A stretch of 20,000 nt of DNA from Mesotaenium endlicherianum. Its lineage: Eukaryota. The notes below the pieces were generated by a model. It ran no database searches and was not told the DNA's origin. It saw only the letters and a program-made list of their open reading frames with translations. A program made the translations under genes and the position numbers. This document shows positions 2 to 20,000 of the stretch, one piece after another (position 1 is the stretch's first letter; each line of letters begins with the position of its first letter). The DNA lies in assembly GCA_009602735.1 (NCBI GenBank), contig WELA01001161.1, positions 56,565-76,564 of the forward strand. The letters are read 5' to 3'.

Positions 2-574
2 GGACCTGCCTAGCACGAGATCATAAAAGCCAGTGTTGAGTACCTCAAATGTAAGCGTTTCAGTTAGAACTGCAATGCCAGAACCTAACTGGACCTCAAT
101 AGGCTTGGTTATAACTCCTCCCGGGATACTTGAGGCATCTCCAAGGAATATTTTTCTATTCCCTTGGGTGACAGTAGGCAGCCTTAGCCGCTTAACTAAG
201 TCCTTGTGAATAAAAGTATGTGACGCCCCTCCGTCAACAAATGCCCTCACCTTCCTACCTGCAATCATGCAATGCAGTAGGATAGGGGGGACTGTCTTTT
301 CCTGACTTTCGCATTGTTCTCCTGACGTAGCAAAGAAATGTTGGACATCAGGTGGAACAAGAGCATCCAGAGTGTGCACTCTCTGGACGTCTATATTACT
401 GATGGTCTCCTTTATCTGTTTGTCAGGCATGCATAGTGAATCCAGTTCAGCAGGACCCATAATACCTGCTACGAGGGCAGCTAGTGACGACTCACTATCT
501 CTAGCATCCTCACAGTCAGTAGACTGGATTACTGACTGTTGCTGTCTTTTAAAGGCTGGTCTTTTCTCTCGACC
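2..574 (-). CDS. pol: Pol N-terminus, retropepsin-type aspartic protease (partial; no own start needed, reached by -1 frameshift from gag)
   Basis: Manual translation gives an open frame from 574 to the window edge: ...PPILLHCMIAGRKVRAFVDGGASHTFIHKDLVKRLRL...FEVLNTGFYDLVLGRS. Catalytic-type motif VDGGAS (DGG at 227-235) and C-terminal YDLVLG motif. Not in the supplied ORF track. Confidence 0.88.
512..553 (-). promoter_or_regulatory. Programmed -1 ribosomal frameshift signal (slippery heptamer plus stem-loop)
   Basis: Minus strand: T TTA AAA heptamer (547-553) in gag phase, 7-nt spacer GACAGCA, perfect 10-bp stem ACAGTCAGTA/TACTGACTGT with 8-nt loop (512-539). The pol frame opens just upstream (stop at 575-577). 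Confidence 0.85.
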
Positions 575-2007
575 TTAGGCAGGTGCTTGACCGGACACTG
601 TTCTCTGTAGTGGCCTTTCTGCTGACAATGGTAGCAAGTAGATTTTGCTGAGGCTGGTCTCGGCTTAGTCCTACCACCACCCCTTCCATAGCCACCTCGA
701 GAGGGACCACCTCTACCTCTAGACTGAATAGCATTGTACTCATACTCATATTCATCACCCTGATTATCCTCAGCCTGGTCTCCTTCAACTGCATTGTAGG
801 AACCGTGGGGCTTTTTGACAATCTTAGACACCAAAGCGTTACTCTGGCGCTTGTGATTGAACTGCTGCTGATCCCAGGCGTCAGCATCCTGGATCAAGTC
901 AGCCAGTTTCTCATACTTTTTCTCAGCAAAATGACCAGAGACCTCGGATTTCAAGCCATACCTGAAGTATGCTATCCTATACCGTTCTGGCAAATCAGGC
1001 TGCTTCATCATGTTCTCTTGGAACTTTTGAGCAAACTCAGCAACTGAAGTGGTCTGCTTCAGTGTCAGGGAGATCATCGCATAGATAGCTTTCTCCTGCT
1101 GGTTGATGACATCAAACTTCTCATGCAACTTCTCGACAAACTCTACCCACGTAGGGTCACCGAGTTGCCGAGCCTTACGCTCTTCCTTCCAGTAAAGCCA
1201 CCAGTCTGCGGCACTGCCTTTCAGTAGCGCACCGGTGTGCCTGACCTTCTCGTAATCTTGCAGTTCTGGGTAGTTCTCCAGCCACTGCTCAACATCCGCG
1301 AGAAACTTGATCAGGTAATATTTTCTGTTTCCCTCAGGATCATAGTCCTGGGGAGGTTTCGGCTTGGGCTTACTAGGCCCTCGGCCACCACCACTAGTGG
1401 TGTGAGACCCCAGTTGGTCTCTGTCCCGGAGTAGGGACATTATGATTCTTTTGTCCTCCTGCTGGGACTGATACATGGTCGCCATTTGCGACTGCATCTG
1501 AACGAACAATGCTCCCAAGTCTACATTTTGGGGTGGTAGATTAGCAAATGCAGCAGCAGCATTGGCATCTACTCGCTGAGTAGTGTCCTCAACAATCCCT
1601 CTTGCTCCTGCAGCAGCAATTCCTGCCGCATTCAGCCGGTCACGTATTTGACCTAGGGGTACATTGAGTTGTACGGCAGGAGGTGGGTTCAGAACATTGG
1701 CCCTTGATGCCATAAGTTCTTCAACAGTGCGCTCGTCAGCTGGCTGTCCTTCCCTCCTTTGTATATCTTCAGCGGCCTTTGCTACTTGTTCAGCTTCTAG
1801 TCTGGCTATCTCCTCCTCAGCTTGCTGAGCTGCGACTGAGGCAATAGCAGCTGCCTCATCTGCAGCCTCCCTAGCTGCAGTATCCGCTACTGCTTCCGAA
1901 TAGGTACGGTTTCCCGCTACATGGCTTTCCGCCTGGTTTTCGACATTCTCGTTATCCTGGTTCTCCATGTCTCGGGAGTTGCTAGTTTGAGACCTTGTCC
2001 TTACCAT
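529..2007 (-). CDS. gag: Gag of element A (retrotransposon gag domain plus one CCHC zinc knuckle)
   Basis: 492-aa intact ORF; starts MVRTRS; capsid-like LLKGSAADWW...TWVEFVEKLHEKF...LKQTTSVAEFAQKF...YFRYGLK; RGG-rich stretch; CYHCQQKGHYREQC knuckle. Confidence 0.93.
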   Translation of the reverse strand: MVRTRSQTSNSRDMENQDNENVENQAESHVAGNRTYSEAVADTAAREAADEAAAIASVAAQQAEEEIARLEAEQVAKAAEDIQRREGQPADERTVEELMASRANVLNPPPAVQLNVPLGQIRDRLNAAGIAAAGARGIVEDTTQRVDANAAAAFANLPPQNVDLGALFVQMQSQMATMYQSQQEDKRIIMSLLRDRDQLGSHTTSGGGRGPSKPKPKPPQDYDPEGNRKYYLIKFLADVEQWLENYPELQDYEKVRHTGALLKGSAADWWLYWKEERKARQLGDPTWVEFVEKLHEKFDVINQQEKAIYAMISLTLKQTTSVAEFAQKFQENMMKQPDLPERYRIAYFRYGLKSEVSGHFAEKKYEKLADLIQDADAWDQQQFNHKRQSNALVSKIVKKPHGSYNAVEGDQAEDNQGDEYEYEYNAIQSRGRGGPSRGGYGRGGGRTKPRPASAKSTCYHCQQKGHYREQCPVKHLPKVERKDQPLKDSNSQ

Positions 2008-2028
2008 ACAAAGAAGACTGTGGTAACT

Positions 2029-2040
2029 GCTCCGATACCA
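2029..2040 (-). promoter_or_regulatory. Primer binding site, tRNA-iMet type
   Basis: Minus-strand TGGTATCGGAGC, 11/12 match to the plant consensus TGGTATCAGAGC; 2 nt from the inferred LTR end and ~20 nt upstream of the gag ATG. Confidence 0.85.
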
Positions 2041-2042
2041 CT

Positions 2043-2777
2043 CGACTTACCAAATAGGCGATTAACAATTAATAAAGATCTTTATATCAGCAAGTAATCT
2101 TTATGGTATTTCCGTTAACTGGTTAAACGGCAAAGGACAATACACTAGCAGGGAATAATACTCGTAAGTCAAATGCGAGTAAACTAGCATCAATAATGCA
2201 AATCAGTAAACTCATACATAAGCAAGGTTAGAAGACAGTGCGTATCAATGGCTTCTCGCCTTGGATTCAGATCTCTCTCAGTAAGCTGTACAAGAGAGTT
2301 GGCCTCGTTTCCGAATGCCGAACTCGAGAGCAATGCCTAGCATATGTACATGGAATGAGTTTACGGTTCAACGGTCAGTGCGATGGCACCGCCTACCCGG
2401 GAGTTAACCACGTTGGTAGGACCTCGGTTAACCAAATCCACCGCCATCTCCCATCATCCCGAATAGCCATCCATCACGGGGATGTCATCTGGCCATTCAT
2501 CTAGCAGGTGGTACTTAGATGCATATCAAGGCAGTTCGCTGCTACCGAGCACGGAAGTCAGCTGGCTGTCAAAGAATGTGTCAGCAAGCTGACTTAAGTT
2601 GACTTCAGCCTGTTGCTTTTGGCCGAGTCATTAAACTGATAATTATATAAAGTCCAGCAGACTGATTATTAACTAAAGTTCAGCAGACTGACTACTAACT
2701 AAAGTTCAGCAGGCTGAACTAAATTAACTATTATATTTAAATGAATATTATGTCTACTAATATACTGATTCATTACA
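2043..2777 (-). repeat. 5' LTR of element A (~735 bp)
   Basis: Non-coding segment between the PBS and the insertion junction. Begins TG(TAATG) on the minus strand; ends ...GTAAGTCG (CG rather than canonical CA). The partner LTR is outside the window, so the limits are inferred. Confidence 0.75.
2649..2720. repeat. 26-bp tandem repeat (~2.8 copies) inside LTR A
   Basis: AAAGTCCAGCAGACTGATTATTAACT (2649-2674), AAAGTTCAGCAGACTGACTACTAACT (2675-2700), AAAGTTCAGCAGGCTGAACT (2701-2720). Confidence 0.9.
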
Positions 2778-4189
2778 CTGGACGATGGTGCACGTCAAAG
2801 GTGTACTCCTGCAAGATGAGCGCCCACCGTGCGTACTTGCCTGTCAAGCGCTCCGACGTCATGAGCCACTTGAGTGGCTGATGGTCGGTGACCAAGCAGA
2901 AGTGGGTGCCGTAGAGATAGTGCCTGAAATGCACAATCGCCCATACTGCTGCCAGGCACTCCCCCTCATAGGAGCCGTAGTTGCCCTTGGCACGGTTGTT
3001 GCTGCGGCTGGCGTACGCCACCACATGCTCGAAGCCGTCATGCTCCTGCACCAGCACAGCTCCAAGCCCTGCCTGCAACCAGTCGGTGTGGAGGATGAAG
3101 AGCTTCTGATAGTCAGGCCGCCGTAGTACTGGGGCGCTCACCAACAGCTCCTTGAGCTTGTCAAACGCTGCCTGCTGCTCTGGTCCCCATACGTAGGCAA
3201 CGCCCTTGCGTAGCAAGTCGTTGAGCGGCTTGGCCAGCTCGCTGAACCCAGGCACAAAGCGGCGATAGCAGTTGGCGATGCCAAGGAAGGCCCTCAACTG
3301 TGAGAGGTCGATCGGCGGCGGGATGCCTGTGATGGCCGAGATCTTGGCCAGCTGAGGAGCCAAACCACTGGAAGACAGAAGATGCCCGAGGTACTCCACC
3401 TTCCGGGTCCCAAAGGTGCACTTGCCTGGATGACTCTTGAGCCCAACGGCCTCCAAGCGGTCCAGAATTGTGGTGATATGCGCCACGTGCTCCTCAAACG
3501 TCTCACTAAAGACGAGTACGTCATTGATGTAGCACCGGGCAAAGGAGAGCCCTGCCAGCTCCTTATCCATGACTCCTTGGAAGGTGGCAGGAGCGTTCTT
3601 CAAGCCGAAGGGCATAACCCTCCACTCGTAGAGACGCTGCGATCCCCAAAAAGCCGTCTTATGCTGGTCCTCCTCCGCAATGGGTATCTGGTTGAAGCCC
3701 TGCCTCAAATCCAGCATCGAGAACCAAAGTACAAGCGCCGATGTCGTCGAAGATCTCGTCAGGGGTCGCCATAGGGTATCTGTCCTACTCAGTGACCTCG
3801 TTAAGATTACGATAGTCACCGCACATCCTCTTCTCAGACCAGTTGCCTGAGGCGTCCTTCTTAGCTGGCATGACTGTGGGCGCAGCGTAGGTGGAGGTAG
3901 ACTCACGAATGAGCTGACCCTCCTCTAGCTTGCCTGTCTGCGTGCTGATCAGGTTGTCCTCAAAGCGGCTGTAACGATAGCGCTTCTGGAAGATGGGCAC
4001 GTCTGTCTGGAGGGGTATCCTCATAGGGTTGCCTGTGTAGCGCCCAAGATCGTGCATGCCGCTGGCAAAGCTGGCACTGCGCCGTGCATCCAGCAACACC
4101 GTGAGCTGAGCAGCCTGTGCCCCAGTGAGAGTCCCCCCCAGCTTCCAAGTAGGGACAGCTGGTGGTGGCTCCTGCGCTACGGCTGGCAC
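2778..4189 (-). pseudogene. pol: Reverse transcriptase and RNase H of element B, disrupted
   Basis: Joining ORFs 3785-4189 and 2773-3906 gives YAAPTVMPAKKD...KRMCGDYRNLN, *DRYPM, LDLRQGFNQI, KTAFW, MPFGLKNAPATFQ, YIND (for YIDD, 3520-3531), YLGH, LRAFLG, LHTDW, VAYASR, EGECLAAVWAI, LVTDHQPL. In-frame TAG at 3785-3787, 1-bp frameshift near 3726-3728, truncated at 2778. Confidence 0.93.
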
Positions 4190-4589
4190 CTCCTGCCCTG
4201 CTGCTGGGGTGATTTATGGGGCCGCAGGCGTCACCTGTCCTGCAGCTGGCTGCACTCGGCCTGCCTCGAGTGCCCTCTCCTCGGCAGCTGCTGCCATCTG
4301 CCCTGCACCACCTGTAGGCGGCGGAGAGCGTGGAAAAAGAAACGGGGAACGAAACTCCCTGGGTCGCTGTGAGGACTCCTGTCTCCTCCTGCCCCCCCCC
4401 AACGAACCATAAAAACAAGGACCTGGACGAGGCGCAGGCGGCTGCTGGGAAGCTGGACCCTCGCGCTGGGAATGCCAGGTCGTACCAGGCGGGGCGCGGT
4501 CGTCGCCGTCGGAATCTCGATCCATGGCGTCATAGAACTGGTCCATCTCAGGATGACGAGCCTGGGCGTAAAGGGGAGTCAGGGCCTGT

Positions 4590-5545
4590 GTTTGCAGGAG
4601 AAGCCACGTCAAAACGTTGGCATCGATAGCCTGGCAAAGGAGACGCACGCGGTTGACCTCGGTGATGCCGTCCACCTGTGTGAGGTGCGGAGGGAAGCCC
4701 ATCGCACGCTCCATCTCCACGGCACGGGGTCGCTGGAACATGCCAGTCTTGAGGTCAATGATCATGCCGCGCTGGTCGCCCACGTAGGCCGCGCTGTCGT
4801 AGCGACTCACGAACGTAGGAAGCGCCCGCGTGACGTCGTGGATGACCTCACACTGGGCCTGAGAAGAATGCGGAAGGGCGACCACACGCTGGGCCAAGCG
4901 CGCCACGTCGAGGATGGAGTCAATGTTGCGCGTGTGGCGTGGATGTGCGGCCGCTAATGCCTCAAGCGTGCCTGGCATGGCCAGGTTGGTGAAGTAGGCG
5001 CGCACACGATGCGCGAAGGAACCAATCTGGGCAGCGTTGATGACTGCCTCACGATCGACGTAGCTGTTGCAGGGGGAAAAGTCTGCGCTGACGTTGGGCC
5101 AATAATTGTGGCGGACAGCCACGTTCTCCAACACCCAGGCGAGCGTGTGCGGAGGCTGGCGGTCCTCAACCATGTTGAGGACGCGGAGCAAGTGCCAGTA
5201 CAAGGCCGTACGCAGGTCACCGAGCGCGCTGCCCTGTCCCGCAATGGAGAAGCCCTGGCACTCCCAGCCAGCAATGATGAGGTCAATGGGCCCGAGGCGC
5301 GTGATGTGCTCGGCGGTAATGTCGCGTATGTCCATGGGCCAGTTAGTCTGGGCGTGGTAGAAGGCATGCTCAGGGAAGAGGTCGGGGAAGCGCTCGTGGC
5401 ATAAGGCCATCTGCCTGCGGGCGACCTGCTGCGCCTCGCCATTGGGGTCCACGTAGACGTACCGACGTACGGGGATGCCAGCCTGCAGGGTGGCCAACAA
5501 CCCTATCGCAATGCCGGCGAAGAGCTCGACGAGGACAATGCCGTC
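4590..5545 (-). CDS. C5 DNA cytosine methyltransferase domain within the polyprotein of element B (part of ORF 4214-6124)
   Basis: Motifs in canonical order: I LVELFAGIA (FAG 5513-5521), II YVYVD, III DI, IV DLIIAGWECQGFSIAG (5258-5269), V DLRTALY, VI WVLENV (5120-5128), VIII AHRVRAYF (5000-5011), IX RAVEMERAMGFP, X-like RLLCQAID. Same frame as the downstream RT N-terminus, separated by one TAA at 4214-4216. Confidence 0.9.
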
Positions 5546-6124
5546 GGGACGTTTGTCGAGCTGTGCGGTGTAGATAGGCATAGGAAGGGGGCGACAGCCC
5601 AGGGCGGGGTTACCGGCCTGCGCTGGCGGTGGATAGGAGCGCAGCAGACTGTGCTGATGGGGCGCCATGCGGAGGGCCGCCACTGCGAGCTTTGCGTAGT
5701 GGCGAGTAAGTCGAGGAATGCGCTCGAGCAGCGGCTGCGGACGAGCCGTGCGAGAATGTGCCTGATAAGTGCGCCAGCGCGCACGCGCGTCCTGCGAGGC
5801 CTCCTCGGGCACTGGGCGGGCCAAAGCCTTCGCGTCGCGGACGCACTGCTGCTGCCACCGGTCCCTCGTCCTGTAGTCTGCGTGATGTGAAGCGGCGTGG
5901 GCCAGCTGCTCTGTGGCGGTGCGCTGGGGCAGCTGGGAATGCTGATCAAAGTACGAACGCTGACGCTCGCGAAGATCCGCCTGAAGGGGCACTGTGCAGA
6001 CGGAGCGCTCGTCCCAATGTGCTGCCTGTTGAGGACGGACGAGCTGACGTGGGGCAAGTTGGACTCGCGGGCACAGCGACGAAAGAGATGCGAGTCGGAC
6101 GCGCTCCCGCTGGCTCCGCTGCAT

Positions 6125-7405
6125 GGGCCCTGCGCGTGTTGCGTGCGAACGAGGATGACGGTCGCGGAGGCGCGCAGCGGTGCGGGCCGCCTTATGAGGA
6201 GGTGACCCAGACGGCCCGTTGCCGGCTATGTGACTGCGCGGGACGTTGGTAGGCTAGCCAGGCGGCGTCTGGTATAATGCGTGAGCTGCAGTGGTGGAGG
6301 AAGACTGTGCGTCATACTAGCGGGTGCGGAGATCGCGCGGACCGTCATACGGTGGTGTGACTGAGCGCGGGCGCGTCTCGCGCAAAGGAGTGACCTCTCT
6401 CTCCTCGCAAAGAGGAGGGGCCTCCCGTGCGTCCCTGGGAGTGTCGTGCAGAGGCGTGACCTCGCGGGCAGCCCTGGTATGCTCGCGGATCGAAGTGACC
6501 TCGCGTGCGCGCCGGTCTAGTGGCAAAGTGCGGCGTGCGAAGCGTAGACCTGGCCCGGCGTAGGGGGAAGGACCTGTACGCCGAGGACCGAGGATGCTGG
6601 TCCTGGCCACTGTCTGCTGCGCACGTTTGGCTCGCGGGTCGATGGCGGAGGCGCGACCTGGCCAGCCTGTGCTCAGGCTGTTGCCAGCGAACAAGTGCGT
6701 GACGTCACGGCACTCGTTGCTGGTCAAACAGTCGTGCTGTATCGGACGACTAGGCCCGCCGGCGCATGGATGGGCTCGACGGGGATGGGCCGTGGTCTTG
6801 TGAGAGAGAGAACTGAAGCCGGGAGGCCCTGTAGGCTGGCGTCGGACGCGAGCTATAGGCGTGAGCGGCGATGGCTCTGCTGACGGCTGGGCTGCGGGCT
6901 CCTCTGCGGCCTCCTGGGACCACTCCTGCCACTCCTCCTCCTCGCTGCTCAATGACGCGTCGTTGGACCTGCCTGGGAACGCTGCCTGCCTCATGGCCTC
7001 ATCCTCAGACGTGGTAGTGCGTGGCCACGAGTCGCCTGTCCTGTGCGACGGTGCGGGTGAGGGCAATTGGGATGCCATGCGGTACTGGATGGCGACCCCT
7101 ACAGGCACTTCATGCCGTACGCGGACGTGTGATCTTGAGGAGGGTCCGCTCGCCAGCCGCGCACGCGTCAGGTGCGACGGCTGCTGGCGCGGCTGCCAGG
7201 ACTGGCGCAGGTGTGGTTGCTGGGGAGCTGCCAAGTGGCGCCTCCCAATCGCTCCTGGGGTTGCGGGAGCTGGTGTCCGGTCCAACATCCATGTCGGTGT
7301 TGGCTGCCTTGGACGCCGCTCGCGACGCCCTCCCCCCGATGCGTGCGTACGCCGAAGCCCCCGTAGCGCGAATTGCGTCAGCGCGAGGGTTTTGTGCGCA
7401 GCCAA
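6125..7405 (-). pseudogene. Low-complexity Pro/Arg/Ala-rich polyprotein linker of element B with short internal repeats
   Basis: ORF 6317-7405 is in frame with ORF 4214-6124, separated by two TAG codons (6317-6319, 6254-6256). Contains repeated AREVT(P/S)-type units (~6340-6510) and an acidic SSEEEEWQEW patch. Confidence 0.6.
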
Positions 7406-9692
7406 GGTTTAAGCCCTGGCTTTGCGCAACCGTGAGCGTGCCGTCGGCGCTCCGCACAGCAATCTGGCCGCACAGCGCAATCAGGGATGCCCCCTCCTGA
7501 CTAAGAATGGCGATCGAGGCCGCCGAATCTGCGCTGGCCGTGCCGGACTGCGTGCGCGCGCCACGTGGAAGGACGTGTGTGCCGCTGGCGTGCGCAGCTG
7601 CTGCTGTGGCTGCCGAGCTGCGATCTTGTAGCTGGCTGCCCGGCAAGCCTCGCGCCGCCGTGTGAGATGTAAGCGGGCGCGTGAGAGCGCGAGTGTGCGC
7701 GTGGCTGCCGACAAGAGCGGCCTGGCCTGCCAAACACGCGGCAAGTGTCGGCGCATGCTGGACCTTGCTGCTTGCAGCAGCCAGCAGGGTGAGACCCTCC
7801 TGGCGTTGCCGGCAAGTGCGCAGATCTGCGCACGGAATGGCGACGCGTACGGCGAGGGCCGCGGCAGCCGTGTGTGCTGCAAACATGTCACTCAGCTGGC
7901 GAGCGCGCCCTGTTGCGACAGCTGTCGATACGCAGACTGCTGCCAGCACTGCTGGCGTCAGCAGGACGGCACAGACCAGAGGGGTTGCCGAAGCCTGCGG
8001 CTGTGCTGGCGTGTGAGCCGGACCGTCTAGGGGCGCGTCGGGAGCTGCAACGTCTGTGACGCCGGGTAGCGAGACCGCATGAGCCTGCAGCCTGCCATCT
8101 GGCAGCCCGACCGGACGAGTGCAGCGGCTGCTGACGGACATCAGCGCAGAGTGCACAGGTCTAACAGAAGCGTCTGCGCAGACGTCTGCGGCGCTGGTCG
8201 CCGTAGCTCTGTCGTGGGGCGGGCGCGTGCAAGGCTGCAGCGCTGCTATAGCGCCAGGTGCCAGCCTCTGAGGTTGCCACGTGTTGGCGTCGTGAAAGTG
8301 CGCAGGAGCTGTGCAGACGCCAGCTGTCGGAGCTGAAGCGTCGGACAACGGGACGCGTGCAAAGAGGGCTCCGCACGCGTCGTAACTGTCAGTGGCGACG
8401 AGACCACGGAGTCTGGCGTTCTCTGCGTTGGCCTCTACGAGGGCGTCGCTGACGTCGTCAAAACTGTAGTAATCGGCTCCGGGGGTCAGCGCGGCGTCCA
8501 TCGTAGCCGAGGCTGCCGTCATCGAGGGACGTCCACCCGTGCGAGGGTTACGCATGCCCCAAAGTCCTGCTGCTGGCGCAGGGCCGTCACGGAGCTTCTT
8601 CTGCAGGCATACAATCTGCAGGTGGCCGGCCTTCCCACAGTAGGTACAGTCACCGGGCTTGCCATTCTGCGCAATAGTGCAGTTCTGGCGAGAGTGGCCC
8701 GTCTTCCCGCAAAACCAACAGGGGTCACTCGTCGTGGCGGCCATGGAAATGCGGCCACGCGGAGCCCCGCGCTGCTGGGTCTGCTGGGACAGCTGAGAGC
8801 GCTGGGGCTGCTGCTGCTGTTGGGGCTGGCGAGCCGGAGTTAGGCGCATCGTCGTGGATGGCAGCACCAAAGACTCCTCGCGTACGCCCGTGGATGCGAG
8901 GCCTACACGATCGCTAATGTTGCTCCGTGCGGCGGCCAAGCTCTGCTTCACGACTGAGAGGTAAGCGTCCTCCAGCGAGTACTCGGAGCCGATGTGGTAG
9001 ATGAGAGGAGCCATGGCTCGCTCCCTCAAACGTGGCTCTACGGCGCGCAAGAAGATCTCCGCTGCCTCCCGGTCAGTGATGGTGCCAACGTCTCGGCGAA
9101 GGTGCGTCAAGCGGCGGTACATCATGCGGATCGTCTCGTTCTTGCGGCTGCAGAAGTGGTGCAGCTTGTACACCTTCTCTTTGGTCGCGGCCTGGAACTC
9201 CTTCCTGAGGACGTCCCAGAAGGCCTTGACCGGATCAGCAAGAAGGGTCTCCACTGGGGGTTCCCCCACAGATTCTGTGCGTGCGTAGATCTCGTCACCC
9301 TTCTCACGGAATGTGTCACGGGCCTCGTAGAGGAGATAGCGCGTGAACGTATAGAACACGTCACGCTTAGTGAGCGCGGGCGTCTTAAGCCTCGCGGTCA
9401 CGAACTCAGCCTCGAACTCTGAGATTGTGTCGTCCAGATCACAGGTTCCTGGTCTGCCGCTGAAGCGGAAGAGGGAGGACCTGTCAGCCTTGACCTCGTG
9501 GTTACCTGCCATGGGATACCAGGAATCGTGGTGAGCCCACTGGGAAGACGGCTCAGGGACAATCACAGGAAGCACGAGTGCTGGCTGTTCCCCTTCAGAG
9601 GGCTCAGTGACAGTATTGAGATCGGAGTCTGAGTCTTCTCCACTAACCCCTTTGTAGTAAGGCTGGTAAGCACGCCCACTACGGGTAGGCAT
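7110..9692 (-). CDS. gag: Gag of element B (two CCHC zinc knuckles) with a long Ala-rich C-terminal extension
   Basis: 860-aa ORF starting MPTRSGRAY; capsid-like FRFSGRPG...NETIRMMYRRL...EIFLRAV; knuckles CWFCGKTGHSRQNC and CTYCGKAGHLQIVC. The 3' end overlaps ORF 6317-7405 in another frame, implying a frameshift between ~7115 and ~7400. Confidence 0.85.
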   Translation of the reverse strand: MPTRSGRAYQPYYKGVSGEDSDSDLNTVTEPSEGEQPALVLPVIVPEPSSQWAHHDSWYPMAGNHEVKADRSSLFRFSGRPGTCDLDDTISEFEAEFVTARLKTPALTKRDVFYTFTRYLLYEARDTFREKGDEIYARTESVGEPPVETLLADPVKAFWDVLRKEFQAATKEKVYKLHHFCSRKNETIRMMYRRLTHLRRDVGTITDREAAEIFLRAVEPRLRERAMAPLIYHIGSEYSLEDAYLSVVKQSLAAARSNISDRVGLASTGVREESLVLPSTTMRLTPARQPQQQQQPQRSQLSQQTQQRGAPRGRISMAATTSDPCWFCGKTGHSRQNCTIAQNGKPGDCTYCGKAGHLQIVCLQKKLRDGPAPAAGLWGMRNPRTGGRPSMTAASATMDAALTPGADYYSFDDVSDALVEANAENARLRGLVATDSYDACGALFARVPLSDASAPTAGVCTAPAHFHDANTWQPQRLAPGAIAALQPCTRPPHDRATATSAADVCADASVRPVHSALMSVSSRCTRPVGLPDGRLQAHAVSLPGVTDVAAPDAPLDGPAHTPAQPQASATPLVCAVLLTPAVLAAVCVSTAVATGRARQLSDMFAAHTAAAALAVRVAIPCADLRTCRQRQEGLTLLAAASSKVQHAPTLAACLAGQAALVGSHAHTRALTRPLTSHTAARGLPGSQLQDRSSAATAAAAHASGTHVLPRGARTQSGTASADSAASIAILSQEGASLIALCGQIAVRSADGTLTVAQSQGLNLGCAQNPRADAIRATGASAYARIGGRASRAASKAANTDMDVGPDTSSRNPRSDWEAPLGSSPATTPAPVLAAAPAAVAPDACAAGERTLLKITRPRTA

Positions 9693-9883
9693 ACGCTGAA
9701 GATTCTAATTGCGTGCAGGCAAAGAGACATCTTTTTAGAAGTAAGGAGTGTGTACTCTCCAGAGTGAGCACCTCAAGATTGTAATCTGGTAGGAAAACAA
9801 CTAATGAAGTCTGGCCCAAAAGATCACTGGAAGCACATGATGATCTTCAAGAGTAGTCCTATGGCAGGGGGTATAAGCTGTGA

Positions 9884-9895
9884 CTTTGCTCACCA
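9884..9895 (-). promoter_or_regulatory. PBS-like site of element B (priming tRNA not identified)
   Basis: Minus strand ...CTTCACA AG TGGTGAGCAAAG: LTR-type CA end, 2-nt spacer, then TGG. Confidence 0.6.
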
Positions 9896-9897
9896 CT

Positions 9898-11543
9898 TGT
9901 GAAGTTCTTCTAGTGACTGGAAGCCAGCAAGGCTTGCTCTTCATAAGAGAGAGACTAAGTGGTCCTGAAAACACAAGAGATAAAAGTGTAAGCTTTACTG
10001 ATAATCTCTGTGACTTATAACTGGCATAATGGGACTTCTAAAAAGATGTTCCTCTAGGGACATCTCTAGCACTTATACTCCTGAAATCCCGACGTCGTAT
10101 GCGGCGGATCCAATGCATGTAGTCACTCTAGGAGGCTCTCCTATGTCCACTAATGTGTACAAGGCATGTACTAGCACTCCTATAGGCTAAGCATAACTCA
10201 AACCAATCAAAGCAAAGCACGTAAAATATGCTAAGTGTCTCTCGTTGGTGGAGCTTACCTTGGGTAGTTCTACCTAGATAGCGCCTCAAAAGTGAATCTG
10301 GAACTTGAGGAAGCTTCCTCTAGGAGATGGTGATGCAGTCACCAAGTTATAGCCTCAATAATGCACTCGTACTATGGAAATGCAAGACTTATGTAGTCTA
10401 AAGGGCTCGCGGATTTGTGCGCACAAAGCTAGGGGTCCTTGGGGTCACGAATAGTCAACATTGTCACCTTTGGGTGCATGAAGTCACAAGTTGGCCATTT
10501 GGTGTGGTTCCGCTAGGTGCCGAAAGGAGTGCGGACTAGATCGCGTCTACTTCGCTCGATAATTAACCAAATGACGCAAAACCGGTGCCATTCGGAAGAT
10601 GCTTCGACGCGCTACACTTTGGTAACTTGGAAATCTAGAGAAGGTCAACATATGGATGCGTAAAGTCAATGCAAAGTTGGTCTTCCTAGGTTGATGGTTC
10701 GCACAAGTAGAGCTTGGGTTCGCACGTCAACCTCGACTTAATAAATCATGACAAGAGAGAGTCTAAGTGGTCCTGAAAACACAAGAGATAAAAGTGAGCT
10801 TTACTGATAACTCTGTTGCTTACAGCTGGCATAATTGACGTCTAAAAAGATGTCATTCTAGGGGCATCCACTGCTATATACTCCTTGGAAAACCGGCGCT
10901 GAAGGCGGCGGATTCAATGCATACAGTCATGCTAGGAGGCTCTCCTAGGTCCACGAAAGTGGAGGCAAGGCATGTACTAGCTCTCCTATTGGCTAAGCAC
11001 AACACACACCAATCAAATATAGTGCAAGAAAGAGACTGCATGGCTCTCAATTGCGGACCTTACCTCGACCAATGCTACCTAGATAACGCCTCAAAAGTAG
11101 ATCTGAAACAGGAGGAAGCTTCCTCTAGGAGTGAGTGATGCAGTCACTTAGTTATAGCTCAAATGGTGCTCATATACTATGCTATTACATGCTAAGTGTA
11201 CTTTATCAAGCTCGCGGACTAGAGGTCCTTGGAGTCGCGAAGAGCCAACAATGTGACCTTTGGGCACATTGAGTCACAAAGTGGCCTTTGGTGAAAACCC
11301 GCTAGGGGCCGGTAGGTGGCGCGGACTAGATTGTGAATATCTCGCTTGACACTTGACCAAATGGCACGCAACTGGTGTCGTTCGGAAGGTGACGCGACGC
11401 TCTACACTTTAGCAATTTGGAACGCTAGCAAAGGTCAACATATGAATGCGTGAAGCAAGGTCAAAGTCGGCCCCTCCTAGGTCGATGGTCGACACACGTG
11501 TGTCTCGGCTTGGGCGACGGTCCCGACCTAATGAGTCATGACA
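9898..11543 (-). repeat. 5' LTR region of element B, made of two diverged ~800-bp tandem units plus a unique 48-bp PBS-proximal end
   Basis: Unit 1 9946-10753 and unit 2 10754-11543 both begin (plus strand) AGAGAGAG(A/T)CTAAGTGGTCCTGAAAACACAAGAGATAAAAGTG and end TCATGACA (minus-strand TGTCATGA, an LTR-type TG start). They are colinear throughout. Confidence 0.85.
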
Positions 11544-13869
11544 CCTCGTCGGGACGCGTATTTTGAATATTTTGAAAATACGTCGAAATACGTGGTGTAA
11601 TACGTCGCTCATTGACCAATACGCAAGTATCCCATAACTAGGACTGCAATAGGATGGCATGTGTAAGTTCTAATCTTGATTTCTTTACAAGTTGAGTACC
11701 CTTACTCAATCGTGCAACTTTCAATCCGTGAAAAGCCCGCGAGCTTCTCCCTACGAATTGCCTTGAACGATTACAACAAGCGACGAGTCATAATAAGTCA
11801 ACAAGATACATCGACGCTAAAACAAATTGATTCTCACAAGAACTACCTGAAGCCATGCCACAAAATACACGCCACGAAATACATGAACCAAGCAGCTAAC
11901 CGTGGCGGCCAAACGTGTGCCATGCTGCTAGGACTTGTCTACGCGCCCCAGCGGAACCAGGCTAGGCACAGCCCCGACGTGGCGGTCATGCGCCACACCG
12001 ATGTCACGTCTGACGAAGAAAGAGGAATGGAGCCGAGGGAACTTTTAAAAATTGCAAATCCAGTGGAACCGTCAAGAACAAATGGAAACCTTCGTAGACA
12101 TTCTCATCTCGAACCAAACAGCTAAATCTCAAGACCTGACAGTCAAATGCGCACGCTTGGTAAGAAATGAGTACGTAGTTTTACGTAAGATTATTATGGA
12201 GAGAGTGGAGGTTTGCTCTCACAACTTTCACAAGAGTGGACCTTATTGAAACATGCAAAGTGGTGCTCATACTAGACTTCCTTTCTCCTACAAACTTCAG
12301 GCCTCTTTTGACAATTTACTTACAATTCAATCACATGTTGATCTACCTCCTTCCGTTGGCCTCCTCCGCCTACTTTCAATTTGCAAAGGTCTCCTTTATT
12401 GCTTTCAACCTAAGGCCCAGATATGCCTAGACCCTTTCCAAAAGCCATGACTAACACAATTTGAAAATTTGTGTTCAAATTGCCTGATTTGGAAAGAAAG
12501 AAGGTAACGATAGAAAGAATAGTTGGAGTAGTAATATGCTACAATGTGCGTCATCTTTTTGTGTCTAATCCTCTCTATGTCTAGCTATTACTTATTGATT
12601 TATGTTTGCTACTATTTTGCTGACGTTTCTATTGGCCTGACTATGTGAGAAAATGCCAATATGATGCTATTGCTGTGTTGGAGTTGGTCGCCGGATCTTC
12701 TCTGCAGATAATTGCCAATTGACATTGGTGTACTAAACAATAGCAAAAACACAATATTCCGCATGGTTCTTACTAGTGGCTGTTACGGAAAACTGAGGCT
12801 CGTGCTCAAAAATCCTTTTTCAACTCCAAGTATGGGGGTTAGCGGGGTGGGCGGGTGGGTAAGTGTAGCAGCTTATGTCCTGTTGCAATGAATGGTGCAT
12901 TGCAGGTTGAAGTTTTAGAGTTCGGGTGTGTTGAGTGAAAGCGACAAAAGCATTTGAAAAATCAACAATTTTCACACTTGTCAAACTTCAGTTTGCCATG
13001 TCGCAAACCTTCAATTTGCATCAATAACGAGTGTTGTTGTCGTACGGGTTTGCGCCTGTTCGTAAAATGCACTTCTCTTAAATTGCTTATAGCTGGAACA
13101 AAAGAATATCTCACAAAATATTCATGTTAGGGTCACTAATTAGTCATCTCAACTTTTCTGACACACAAATAAAGAGAAGATGTTGCCTCATAGTGATGTA
13201 CAAGTGCGGTCCAACAAATTATGGGCGTCATAAACATGTGACCTAAGCGATTGTTCAAATAGTAAATATGAATATTTACATCACACCACTCTATTCCTAG
13301 CTATACCATGTATGTCTACGATCGAATCTATCATAATGTGTTAATGCACGTACTTTGCCAAGCAAGCAAACCTGCTTCTAAGACATCATAATAAATGACA
13401 CCCTACACCCGCTTTTCTTCACGTTGTAGACCAAATAATACATAAAGAATGAAAGAAATTATTTGCCTACGATAGTGAAAAGCCATATCACGACTTGAGC
13501 AAATCCCCATTCAATCCGAGGAATAATTAAGACTGACTGTTGTGTTGTATTGTTCAAAGTCAGCTACTCTTCTATTTCTCTATTTCATTGATTGAGCAAG
13601 CTGATTGCGATTTCAAGACTTCATCTTGCAATGCTTTCTATCATTTTGTCAACTATCAATATGGATGTTCCTAGCATATTGAAAAACTTAAGCCTTAGCC
13701 CATAGTTGGCTCTAGGAGGCATTTTTGGAGGACCCCTATCCACTGTGACCCCCCAGCAGGGGCATGCAACATGTACAGAAGAAGTTACAAGAGAAATTAT
13801 CATAAAGAAGTTACCTGGAGGAGAGGTCACAAAACACAGGTCCTGGAAGAGGCTTATATAGGGACGGTT

Positions 13870-16750
13870 TTATGTAAGAAGTGGTTCGTTGAGCGTGGGT
13901 GCTTCTTCGCGATCCTTATTAGTGCAAGCAAGGTGCTTGTACAGGACAACAAAACCTAATGCTAGCATAATAACAACAGTGGAACTTAGAAATACACCTT
14001 CATAGCTCCACCTTGAGAGCTCCGTTTCTCCCGGCGGACGAACTTCTAGTATTTGTATTTTCTCCTGCAAACCATTTATTTCTCAAACATAAGTTCGCAC
14101 CTCAAAGCAGGTCTCATGTGGTCATGATATCACCCATTTTTGCTTGCACATCTCTCGAAAGGTACTAACAACAAAGAACCCTCCTTTGCACGAAGGCTTA
14201 TCAAGAGTTGACATACTCGTATGACCACCAACGCATCAGTATATTCCCTGATCGGTCTTATCCTTCCTGCACTCTAGTAACTTCTTGCAGCTGCCACATT
14301 GACTAGCCATCGATTGAAGCATGCAAAGTTACCACGAAACTCCCTGATTTTGGTTCTCAAAGGCAAGTGTATCATTGAGGTACCCATACATGCTTTGTGC
14401 ACCACCTAACAATATGTATTTAGGTGATAACAGGCATGGGCAAAAAACACATGAAAAACTTGTGGGCACATTGACGTGCACCACCAGCACGGAACACTAA
14501 TGTTTCATAAACATCAGAGCCAGAACTTTGACAATGATGATTGCCACTTGTCCACCAGATTGCAGTTGACTCTGGAGAACCCCACATTCTCACACAATGT
14601 CATAAGAACAAGCGCCCGGCACAAGCATTCATACGTGAGTTGACCTCAGCCTACCTGAGCACCAATGATGGCAGTAGTGAGCATCAGAATGTAGATCAGC
14701 ACCCCGGCTTTCACTTCCCACACCTGGACTTTGCTGCCCCCCCCTTGATGGCCCTTATAGAATAGAACGATGCCTCTTATTACCTGCCAAAACCATCAGA
14801 ATGAGGATGCCATTACAGTACGTCACAGGGCTGTAGAAGTTCACTGAATCCATCCTCTTGAGGAAATGCAAAGGACCAATCTCGACGAGGAGCTTACGGC
14901 AAGCTAAGGTTCCACAGAGATGATGCTGTAATCTTTGCGACAACAGCAACTCCAATCAGCGTCCGGACCTCCTGTATGAGCCTCTTCTCAAAAGGCGGAA
15001 AAGCATGTAATGCATGTCTGAAGACAGTTGAAGCTACTAAGCCAGCCACGCAGAGCTCGTCCCGGGACTGAAGGGGCCAAGCACTCCACCACCTAGCTGC
15101 TGCACGCGACACTTTGGCTGGCAGAGGAAAGATGGTCCTAAGATTCAAGAGAAATTGTGAAACCAAGCCCACATATGACAATAGCTCATAGACAGAAACC
15201 CAGGCCTGCCACAAGAGGAGTCAGATGTGCTGCGGGTGGGGAGCTTCAGGGCACGCATGCCTGTGCAGTGAGACCTGCTGTTGCCACGAGCCCCAGCCAG
15301 CTGTGCAGGCTGTACAGGTGGAACAGCCCAGCAAGAGCCTTGTATCTGTACGCAAATGCTATGCCAATGTAGCCCAGCAGGAGAGCGGCAACTTGAGTGA
15401 CGTGGTATGAAGCTCCACTCGACGCTCCACTCGTCTTCGTGCTGCTTTCCCCCCTGCCCCTTACTATAGCTGCACATTCCATACATACACACAAAAAACA
15501 GAATTGGCTCTTGTGTCGAGTATATTGGATTCTACACCGTCTGCTGCGCCCCCGTCACTTGGCTTGAACAGGGGATGTGGATGACAAATGGACTCCCAGG
15601 AGAGCTCCAGAGTGCCAGACTGAACTGCTAAGGAGTCTCATGGCCGTCAAACGAGGTCTTTGGAAGTGTGATTTTGTGATGCATGGCATCCTTGCCATCA
15701 TCAGCAATGCTTTGCCGAGCTGACTGCAGCTTTAGCCCCCAGCTAAGAGACTAGCAGACATCCTGATGTGCGACAATGGCCTGTTAGTTGAAAACCGATC
15801 CTTTTGTAAGCATCAAGTGTAGCAGTTGCATGCTCTGCCCTCGTTAAAAGCCGAGGCTTTGCTCGGGAGGCTGGATAAATCTCAAGCACAAACAGGCCAC
15901 CCACAACCATCCCACGATATGAACCAGCATTGTGCGAGACAAGCTAAGCATCACCCTCACATCCCTCAAGCTCGTGTGCAACCTTGAAGCTGCGGAAATT
16001 CTCCTCCCCGAGTGAAGAGGCACATGTAGGGGGGTGCAAAAGGCTGCAGGGGTGCTGAAAGATGGAGTACCTTGACTCAAAAGACAGATGAATCCAGCCA
16101 CCATGAAAATTGGGTGAGCCTGTTTCAAGATCAGAGACGAGTATGCCATGGGGTGAGCTGAATGATTAACATTCAAACGACACTTTCTGGCTTGGAAAGA
16201 GTCGAATGACAATGATTAACACGCAACCGACACTTTATTGCTTGGGGAGAGTTGAATGACAATAGGGTCGCCCCCTTACATTCGTCAGAACACTGGCCTG
16301 ACTGGTTAAATGAAAGCACAGGATGAATGAAATGTTTGGACAGGCAATCATTTAGAGGCCCAGTCACTTGATGCGATTGCAGAAGTTCTGGATTGGTGGT
16401 TTACTCTTCAGTACGCGGTTTGCACGGCAATTCCAGCAACAATGGGAGCAGCAGGAAAGTTGCAGTCAGATCAACAGCCTGCAGAAGTTGTTGTCAGAGA
16501 CTGCAGCTCGAGACACTATAAATAGTTTGAAACATGGAAGCAGCTATCAATGGACAGTTTAGCTAAGAGGCTAGAAATGAGTCTGGAAACATAAAGCAGC
16601 AGCTGTGACAGCACCTCCTGTTGAACTTACATTCCAGACGTGAACAAGTATCTCCCCCTTTGCTGGGATCCAGGATATCTCTTTGTGGAAGTAGAATATC
16701 CAGGTCAATATCAGCACAAATGTCAACACTGAGAGGACGTCAATTACAAC
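13870..16750 (-). CDS. Cytochrome b561 family transmembrane protein (ascorbate-dependent reductase-like), spliced; first exon unresolved
   Basis: Exons 16631-16750 (VVIDVLSVLTFVLILTWIFYF...VWN), 16071-16119 (AHPIFMVAGFICLLSQ), 15261-15469 (...SYHVTQ...LYSLHSWLGL...AQ), 14655-14783 (VIRGIVLFY...WEVKAGVLIYILML...GAQ), 13870-14064 (EKIQIL...EPLLT*). Splice phases are consistent. SLHSW and NxHP are b561 signatures. Confidence 0.85.
16161..16260. repeat. 50-bp tandem duplication in a b561 intron
   Basis: AATGATTAACATTCAAACGACACTTTCTGGCTTGGAAAGAGTCGAATGAC (16161-16210) versus AATGATTAACACGCAACCGACACTTTATTGCTTGGGGAGAGTTGAATGAC (16211-16260). Confidence 0.85.
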
Positions 16751-18471
16751 CTGCAGGGGCAAAGAGGACTACATGAAGGTGAGCAAAAAGACCTCATACT
16801 GCTCTACACGCTTCTAGAGGACGAAGTTTGGTTGATATGTATTGGCACGAAGGTGGAATAAAATTCTGATCTGTTTCAGCTGGCGAGACCCATCCCCAAA
16901 CTGGCCTGCATCTCTCAATGCCTTGGACATGCATAACCGTAAGTTTTCAATCTCATCATAGCTTTACCATCCAGCATATATATTCCCACTGATACAATGC
17001 TTGCCCTTCATGTGGTAACTAGTGAGTAATATGAACCTGTAAGTGAACAGGTAGGTGACATGCAGCAACAATCATCTCGTGTGCTCTGCGTCACCTTCAG
17101 TGCAGTGCCACATTCGGTGAGGCCACGATGGAGAATATGGACTTGTTTGGTACTAGTGACCATGATCAAAATTTCAAATTGCACATAGTCGCCAAGATGC
17201 CAAGATGCCAAGATGCCGTATACACTGCCTCATTGCAATTTGCGATTGTCTGGATCAAGCAGCCAGTACTAGCGGACTTTCATCAGATAATGAAATACAC
17301 ATTGATCTTACTACATACATACTGGTGAATGCAAGGATGTACAGAGTCAGACTCAATGATAATGGTGCTGGAAGCTTTTTCCAATTTCTAGCTTACGTCT
17401 GAATGTAGGCAATGACTGAGTTATTGTACCTGTAAACGACGCGCATTTTGCTCAGCCATGGTGTATCACCTTGCTTGCTTAGGACGGTTGCACGAAGAGC
17501 TCCGATAAGCACATGCAGCCAGCTGCCTGCTTACAGACAGTCGGACTTATTTCTTGTCGTAGACACTGGTACATCACACGTTCACAGAGGACATTCTATC
17601 ACATGGCTCGCCTCTCACCGCGCCAGTCTTGTAGAATTGGTACAAATGTATCTTTCTCAATGATCGATTTTCTGTCCCTAAAATGAACTTGCTAGTGGTG
17701 TACACTGTATACTAGGGTCACTTTTAAAAAATTACCACAAATGTGGGATTACGGTCTTACGGGATGAACTCCTGGGCAGAGGGTTCCTTGGCCTCCAGCG
17801 TTGGCATTGAATCGGATCGCGATACGTGTTTCTCTGACGAGTTTCGTAGGCGACATCAACTTCACACAAGTTCACAGGTTCCATATCGTCGCAAATTTAA
17901 GTCGCAGAGGACTTTTTAAGGGGTGTTTCAGGTCCAACTGCTGCACCAGAAATGTTGAGAGCCAGACTTGGGGCTAATAGACCCCCAGGCCCTAGATCTC
18001 AACATTGGACGATCGGATGCATCTACTTAGGTGACACACCAATAACTCGGTCCTTCCAGACTCCGAGCTATTGGTTTGATTTGAAATGTGCAAAGGTCCG
18101 AGCCAGGCAACATTCTTGTCATAATTTCCTTCACCCATGCACGGATGGCCAGGAAGTGGTATTGCACTGGCCAGTCTTAGGGATATTTGTATGCTGATGA
18201 AGGTAGCTGAATTTTATCCAATAAGGGAGGAGTGCTGGTTGTCTGACTTTTAAGGCTTAAACGAACTTGGCCGTTGCTACTGATGCCCATGTGTTTCCTT
18301 TTCTTTCTTCATGCGCAACCGAAGTGTTATCCCAGACCAGATTTGCGACTTTTCCTGTGCACTTGCTCGCATCTGTAGGTCCAACGTCATGGATAGACTT
18401 TCACCTAGAACTGTAGACGTAAAAAGTATCTACCCCGAGCACACTCAAGTTGAGATTTGAAGGCCTCTGCA

Positions 18472-19941
<1,470 letters not shown>

Positions 19942-20000
19942 GTGCGCTGCAGATGAAGCTGTCATTTGCCTGCCTCGTGGAGTCCACCCGTTCCCCCCCC

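Follow-up and report, generated by a model that had tools for sequence, protein, structure and literature searches.

A predicted DNMT3-like cytosine methyltransferase domain in the Pol region of a Ty3/Gypsy retrotransposon family of Mesotaenium endlicherianum

It is a puzzle why a transposon should carry the very enzyme by which it is silenced. The design itself is already known from a Gypsy element of Klebsormidium nitens with a DNMT3 domain in Pol (KnitGypsy-Dnmt3; de Mendoza 2018, PMC5890265), which is, as far as the accessible text of that article goes, the sole published Gypsy example, has few copies, and bears a domain that had no activity in yeast, a result its authors call inconclusive. 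The puzzle returns with a 20,000-nucleotide stretch of the Mesotaenium endlicherianum genome (contig WELA01001161.1, positions 56,565 to 76,564; hereafter the window), in which a preliminary description, made from the letters of the sequence, placed a C5 cytosine methyltransferase between the gag and reverse transcriptase (RT) of a Gypsy element. Here we report on this element and its relatives, with two sets of observations that appear to be new. First, sequence comparison points to a deep-branching family with relatives in Closterium, Mesostigma and Scenedesmus, and to two positions of the domain that seem to match two groups of RT. Second, relatives of the family show split repeats, signs of purifying selection, and an in-frame stop that is conserved ahead of RT. 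The interest of the locus comes from how large the family is and from the wider lineage around it; the window copy itself is only a fossil.

The domain (Table 1) is almost certainly, as judged from sequence and structural modelling, a DNMT3-like C5 methyltransferase, and one that belongs to the Pol of a Gypsy family. The C5 methyltransferase proposed for this locus was recovered by Pfam as a match to PF00145 (42.8 bits, cut-off 22; E 6e-11), and the motif order described for it is indeed present on the minus strand within one stop-free frame (6253-4214), in the standard and not the DRM-rearranged arrangement, with motifs I, IV, VI, VIII, IX and X located; when the domain-bearing open reading frame (ORF) was shuffled 10000 times, four motifs in this order turned up by chance 8 times. 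When PDB sequences were searched, DNMT3A, DNMT3B and DNMT3C made up the top 29 matches, with E values from 1.6e-13 (DNMT3A, the best) to 1e-6, and the next enzyme kinds reached only ~1e-3. A profile built from 58 sequences gave DNMT3A at 9e-27, DRM2 at 3e-10 and HhaI at 3e-9, and the AlphaFold model of the domain (pLDDT 93.9) had DNMT3A as its top Foldseek match (E 1.5e-20, TM 0.70). Atlas returned mostly phage methyltransferase clusters; a recent phage origin was considered and rejected, because sequence, profile and fold all point to DNMT3 and because 9-10 phage or bacterial rows fall outside the element domains.

Across an alignment of 134 relatives, from which 16 short matches of the best 150 were omitted, 133 retain the catalytic Cys, all 134 the motif VI Glu, and 133 each of the two motif VIII Arg; motifs I, IV, VI and VIII are intact in the window copy. 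Glu instead of Pro stands directly before the catalytic Cys in the window copy and in 76 of the 134 relatives. At one motif X position the window copy deviates from a residue kept by 125 of the 134, a change private to this copy, with 99% of sister depth lacking it.

By its domain content, the element that hosts the domain is assigned to Ty3/Gypsy, with the domain lying between gag and RT-RNase H. Within the domain-bearing ORF (6253-4214), an Arg/Ala/Pro-rich stretch precedes the domain and a linker of ~125 aa follows it; the next segment (3785..4213) matches a relative's RT at 56% in tblastn, and the RT catalytic motif (3531-3520) has lost one acidic residue in the window copy. The gag part matches gags from relatives that also bear the methyltransferase, in Closterium (E 1e-9) and in Klebsormidium and Mesostigma (E 0.004), and lies in a different frame from the methyltransferase and RT in the window copy; none of the listed slippery heptamers was found in the gag/pol overlap. 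The low-complexity region that separates gag from the methyltransferase is common to many sister copies. No protease was recognized in the window copy of this first element by Pfam, by a profile of 13 relatives' proteases, by BLAST or by Atlas, so that the protease of the element is either too diverged for recognition or absent.

At the other end of gag, both LTR-like units begin with an octamer that also opens the 5' repeat of two relatives (L002 and L019), and DNA contig depth is raised over the LTR-like region up to 10200; the 3' split-repeat part of the element is not preserved in the window. A spliced joint with GT..AG borders (9963-10258, on the element's strand) lies in an LTR-like unit and was seen in three RNA runs, with 3, 5 and 7 reads, and in one contig set. 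After RNase H the first element is truncated by a nested second Gypsy element, and its integrase end is cut off. The nested element was recognized by Pfam from Ty3_capsid, Retrotrans_gag and an aspartyl protease, and is marked by loose contig ends at 2777 and 2042 and by very high depth; its primer site is presumably of the Met type, and its LTR has ~50x the summed depth of the methyltransferase region.

Table 1. Features of the window, in order of position, with motifs listed under the domain that contains them.
Feature	Position	Strand	Details
Nested second Gypsy element	2..2777	minus	LTR 2777-2042; primer site 2040-2029; gag 2046-529; protease 574-2
Remaining RT and RNase H	2778..3784	minus	RVT_1 E 7e-26, RT_RNaseH E 1e-34 (Pfam); truncated at 2778
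Linker end and N-terminal RT, in frame with the domain	3785..4213	minus	closes at a stop
Stop-to-stop ORF holding the domain	4214..6253	minus	679 aa; first ATG 6124
Predicted DNMT3-like C5 cytosine methyltransferase domain	4590..5545	minus	Pfam, PDB, profile, model, Foldseek; motifs I-X
Motif I	5527-5510	minus	
Motif IV, with catalytic Cys	5275-5252	minus	
Motif VI	5134-5120	minus	
Motif VIII	5014-4994	minus	
Motif IX	4720-4691	minus	
Motif X	4639-4619	minus	
GC-rich low-complexity region, gag to methyltransferase	5546..8600	minus	~3 kb; X1/X2 contigs cover all of it
gag ORF	7110..9692	minus	two zinc knuckles, 8720-8679 and 8648-8607; long Ala-rich tail
Two head-to-tail LTR-like units	9945..11543	minus	~810 nt each, 74.5% identical
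Cytochrome b561-like host gene, expressed, multi-exon	13300-17650	minus	five main introns (477-679 nt); one alternative joint
Second host gene	17900-20000	plus	two introns confirmed by RNA

Two host genes, with introns of 187-679 nt, lie further along the window. An exon of the cytochrome b561-like gene has no sequence-database match, and its best PDB match, to 4o6y (a plant-type ascorbate ferrireductase chain), is weak (E 4e-4, against 0.07 for the next). The second gene, which we take to resemble ALWAYS EARLY/LIN-9, is broken by what looks like an assembly gap, a run of poly-C/poly-G containing an N at about 19297-19547. A short repeat at 12457-12890 shows many loose read ends and RNA coverage.

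The methyltransferase stretch had been described as uninterrupted, intron-free and in frame with RT, and hence as part of the polyprotein. One stop-free ORF does hold the domain, in the frame in which RT starts; the continuity breaks at a stop (4214-4216) that separates the domain from RT, at a frameshift near 3726, and at gag, which is in another frame. Further stops lie in RT (3785-3787) and upstream (6254 and 6317). Given these stops and the frameshift, the nested Gypsy element that cuts off integrase, and near-zero RNA, the window copy is a dead relic that makes no enzyme.

Because the window copy is interrupted between domain and RT, polyprotein continuity rests on sister copies. The stop at 4214-4216 is absent from all 27 X1 and all 17 X2 contigs that cover the site, a difference at 3787 is carried by nearly all sister depth (45 X1 contigs), and the extra base at 3726 is missing from 8 X1 contigs. 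Pieces of other copies (4191-4617 and 4204-4646) start within the end of the domain and continue a little beyond the window's stop, and X1 and X2 contigs span all 30 bins of 2000-10200, none alone spanning the whole element. X1 and X2 are DNA runs from one sample, possibly the source of the window itself, and so they show sister copies and not independent occurrence. The absence of the pre-RT stop from all 27 sister contigs argues that the family made a fused protein and is not a one-off capture, and we infer that its domain and RT would have been read in a single frame. Summed depth over the domain is ~200-400x that of single contigs, a crude depth ratio and not a true copy number, by which the family comprises roughly hundreds of copies. 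Two runs with other organism labels (X5 and X8) gave the same profile at <1/1000 of the depth; since this may be carry-over, they were set aside as evidence for other hosts.

The same contigs bear on the reading that the domain is a one-off captured fragment of a host DNMT3, a functionless passenger, or a product of mis-assembly. A broken, near-silent window copy would fit that reading, as would an element spanned whole by no single contig; however, sister copies carry the methyltransferase segment, with X1 and X2 contigs covering the domain, and contigs of other copies bridge it into the linker towards RT. The same order is also found in unrelated genomes and metagenome loci, and relatives appear to be under purifying selection (below). 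This reading is thus largely refuted, and we regard it as very improbable.

Three raw RNA runs that share a species label give a mean depth of no more than 0.04 over 4431-5532, and the neighbouring cytochrome b561-like gene reaches ~10-40 and has spliced joints consistent with the window sequence. Element reads in these runs come from LTR-like units only, from diverged copies and on the element's strand, and the family's coding region is near silent in all three. No RNA dataset is listed as containing the domain.

An exhaustive search for relatives of the domain gave 1607 clusters (50% identity) at E<=0.001, with 111 at E<=1e-30, the closest relative being only 40% identical. The architecture had been called rare rather than unprecedented; it does have precedent, and with this number of clusters it is less rare than was implied. 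Word-indexed searches came back near blank, with 0 longer proteins and 1 near-length protein, which reflects a limit of sensitivity, as the exhaustive search found many relatives; likewise, Pfam fails to detect the domain in 6 of 27 relative proteins scanned. A protease, RT, RNase H or integrase lies on the same protein in 98 of the best 150 matches, the other 52 being too short for the domain to be placed. In 10 of the 150 the domain comes after protease or before RT, the arrangement of the window, and in 88 it follows RNase H or precedes integrase, in many cases on a protein that ends in a PHD finger.

Organism names, drawn from six of 30 proteins looked up, include Closterium and Klebsormidium for the window's position and a Mesostigma relative that is unplaced; one integrase-side protein is from the chlorophyte Scenedesmus. 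The host genes and the named relatives that share the window's position point to a probable streptophyte host. The integrase-side clade (P0011, P0021, P0050 and others) has the order RT, RNase H, DNMT3-like domain, integrase, PHD, and two single-ORF relatives (P0018 and P0156) hold the domain inside the Pol frame. From metagenomes, 80 loci were kept of at least 381 confirmed; the first 24 and L028 bear the domain, with RT, where present, downstream, and in L008 and L014 the order is gag or protease, methyltransferase, RT, RNase H, integrase, PHD.

Co-inheritance of methyltransferase and RT, for which separate trees had been proposed as a check, is borne out by the 52 elements that carry both. 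In each of the two trees a single branch, with SH-aLRT support of 100 for RT and 99 for the methyltransferase, separates off the 10 elements that have the methyltransferase before RT. RT and methyltransferase distances are correlated over all 52 (Mantel r 0.64, p 0.001); when the two types are taken separately, r is 0.82 for the window's type and 0.38 for the integrase-side one. Among 17 well-supported RT splits, 12 recur in the methyltransferase tree and 2 conflict. These trees came from a quick search, with no K. nitens member in the RT set, and kin share labels, so they support long co-inheritance and not co-evolution. A more careful methyltransferase tree, rooted on 9 phage or bacterial rows and built without host DNMT3, L029, L015 and P0156, sets all 41 element domains apart from those rows (100/100); within it the integrase-side group is a clade (96/89) and the window's domain a lone deep branch. 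The quick tree's hint of a nested integrase-side group does not carry over to this tree, whose base is unresolved.

For the domain, dN/dS is 0.10-0.12 among three stop-free relatives (L008, L011 and L014), with dS >1.3 in two of the three pairs, and RT dN/dS is 0.04 in the one pair tested among them; pairs from the decayed L001 family give 0.38-1.2 on the domain. These ratios suggest purifying selection on the domain in three relatives of the window's family. The reading that we favour, and think fairly likely, is that this Pol-borne domain, in its position between gag and RT, methylated the element's own new cDNA in active members. The domain would be translated in one frame with RT, would be packaged into the particle with Pol, and could there, or in the pre-integration complex, meet double-stranded cDNA and methylate its cytosines; an insert methylated in advance might resemble host heterochromatin, or start silent, and survival of the element would be favoured. 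Two points that weigh against this reading are the inactivity in yeast of the Klebsormidium domain, inconclusive as its authors hold that result to be, and the lack of a recognizable protease in the window copy, which leaves no evident means of releasing the domain from the polyprotein.

The relatives include two subfamilies in which an in-frame stop has been retained between the methyltransferase and RT. In L008, L011 and L014 (L008:4661, L011:2081, L014:5083) it is followed by CAR-YYA, a motif with a density of 0.09 per kb in these loci and one that we take to be a readthrough context of the tobacco-mosaic type. In the L001 family, 18 of 20 loci, some of which are one insertion assembled twice, have the stop at one place, followed by CAA (for example L003:1813 and L019:6940, in the context CAA-CCC-ATG). 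The conserved stop is a candidate site of readthrough or reinitiation, and in these subfamilies translation that ends at the stop would yield the methyltransferase along with Gag, RT being reached only if ribosomes read through or reinitiate. For the window's own family, X1 and X2 contigs show neither a stop at the equivalent place nor a readthrough signal. One member of the L001 family, L019, holds a complete element (L019:1679-10805) in which the split repeats run A-coding-B-A-B and the target duplication is 4 bases long; its A repeat opens with the octamer of the window's two LTR-like units, and only the octamer is common. L019 is an integrase-type element with DIRS-like repeats.

A stop of this kind would yield much more methyltransferase than RT, as might be expected if the enzyme acted, with a PHD finger at the integrase end, on chromosomal DNA, either at the insertion site or on sister copies, as a copy-number brake or a source of local heterochromatin. 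The PHD finger that ends many relatives and the 88 of the best 150 matches in which the domain adjoins integrase point the same way. However, the window's family lacks such a stop at the corresponding site, its internal region is near silent in the three RNA runs, and the window copy has no 3' end, so that any PHD part is out of view. Chromosomal action is accordingly an unlikely account of the domain.

CG observed/expected is 1.0 in the domain, 0.5 in host genes and 0.47 in the coding part of the nested element, and this lack of CG depletion disfavours repeated CG self-methylation; active dinoflagellate DIRS elements likewise show no CG depletion, according to the accessible text of PMC5890265. 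The C-to-T changes private to the window copy (5 CG, 7 CHG and 10 CHH of 34 sites, from 40 listed rows minus 6 that were under 85% shared, with 1304 further rows not in the tally) are close to the availability of the contexts, with no context signal at these 34 sites. Undepleted CG would also suit a domain kept mainly as a DNA- or RNA-binding module, for target choice or cDNA protection, with catalysis secondary or directed at RNA, and so would the inactivity of the Klebsormidium domain in yeast (reported in the same text) and the Glu before the catalytic Cys. We consider a binding module quite improbable: the SAM-binding and catalytic residues are almost invariant at only 30-40% identity, which argues for catalysis, and the fold is DNMT3-like and not DNMT2-like. 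Methylation of the element's own cDNA is the account that we retain.

We tentatively suggest a wider picture, in which Gypsy-DNMT3 elements would form a large, old green-plant lineage with two positions of the domain (before RT in the streptophyte type; before integrase in a clade to which Scenedesmus belongs), usually with PHD. A leaky stop in one clade would put the enzyme on the Gag side, in capsid-like amounts; the window's family, some hundreds of copies and perhaps without a recognizable protease, would be a separate deep branch; and such families could have supplied the de novo methylation of their hosts. A larger family, many public RNA runs for the organism and more than 100 divergent relatives offer natural domains for assay, copies for dN/dS and methylome tests, and the two positions and the relatives' conserved stop are handles on the timing and amount of enzyme needed.

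Gypsy-DNMT3 is cited as known for streptophytes in the accessible parts of two sources (bioRxiv 10.64898/2026.05.21.726589; PMC12344493), and those of PMC10952607 and PMC6317226 hold no further such element. In the literature searched, mostly open papers without figures, nothing was found on the breadth of the lineage, on its two domain positions or on the conserved stop; the supplementary trees of PMC12344493 may hold more such elements. Human DNMT3A/B and moss DNMT3 have the same fold and motif order as the window domain. Unlike these host enzymes, the window domain is ~22% identical to human DNMT3, has no PWWP or ADD that could be found, has no introns and lies in a repeat family; the lack of introns, the high copy number and the RNA depth given above for 4431-5532 do not fit a host DNMT3 gene or retrocopy.

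DAM-LTRs and EpiLTRs are likewise Gypsy-like LTR elements with a DNA methyltransferase in Pol, as far as the accessible text describes them (bioRxiv 10.64898/2026.05.21.726589). They carry an adenine methyltransferase, EpiLTRs adding a DNMT4-related domain at the end of pol and a chromodomain, and their authors call them distinct from streptophyte Gypsy-DNMT3. Identity of the window's element with either was rejected, the domain being DNMT3-like and upstream of RT and no adenine methyltransferase being present among 7 ORFs scanned with Pfam (the 3' end of the element lies outside the window copy). Retrotransposon-encoded C5 methyltransferases are also described for Symbiodinium in the accessible text of PMC5890265, as SymbioDIRS-Dnmt3 and SymbioLINE-Dnmt, which confirms, with the Klebsormidium element of the same article, the precedents that the preliminary description had named. 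The former is of the DNMT3 type, shares its ORF with RT, and has two coexisting domain orders, as do the Gypsy relatives. The dinoflagellate DIRS domains methylated CG in yeast, and they are the only ones of the two kinds for which activity was shown there; SymbioDIRS is a tyrosine recombinase element and SymbioLINE a LINE, neither being Ty3/Gypsy.

The closest comparison is with KnitGypsy-Dnmt3, for which the accessible text of PMC5890265 gives a Ka/Ks <0.2. The window's family shares with it an intron-free, non-rearranged DNMT3-type domain in Gypsy Pol, and the K. nitens protein GAQ93235.1 (P0067), from which we take the domain order of KnitGypsy-Dnmt3, was matched at E 3.4e-35 and has the order zinc knuckle, protease, methyltransferase. 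The A-coding-B-A-B repeats described for KnitGypsy-Dnmt3 in that text are shown by the relative L019; the window copy keeps only 5' units, which have the opening octamer in common with it. Unlike KnitGypsy-Dnmt3 as described there, the window copy has ~3 kb of low-complexity sequence leading up to its domain, and a protease was not detected in it; the window's domain, ~34% identical, forms a deep branch of its own and is not sister to P0067, and the window's family is much larger, at roughly hundreds by the crude depth ratio.
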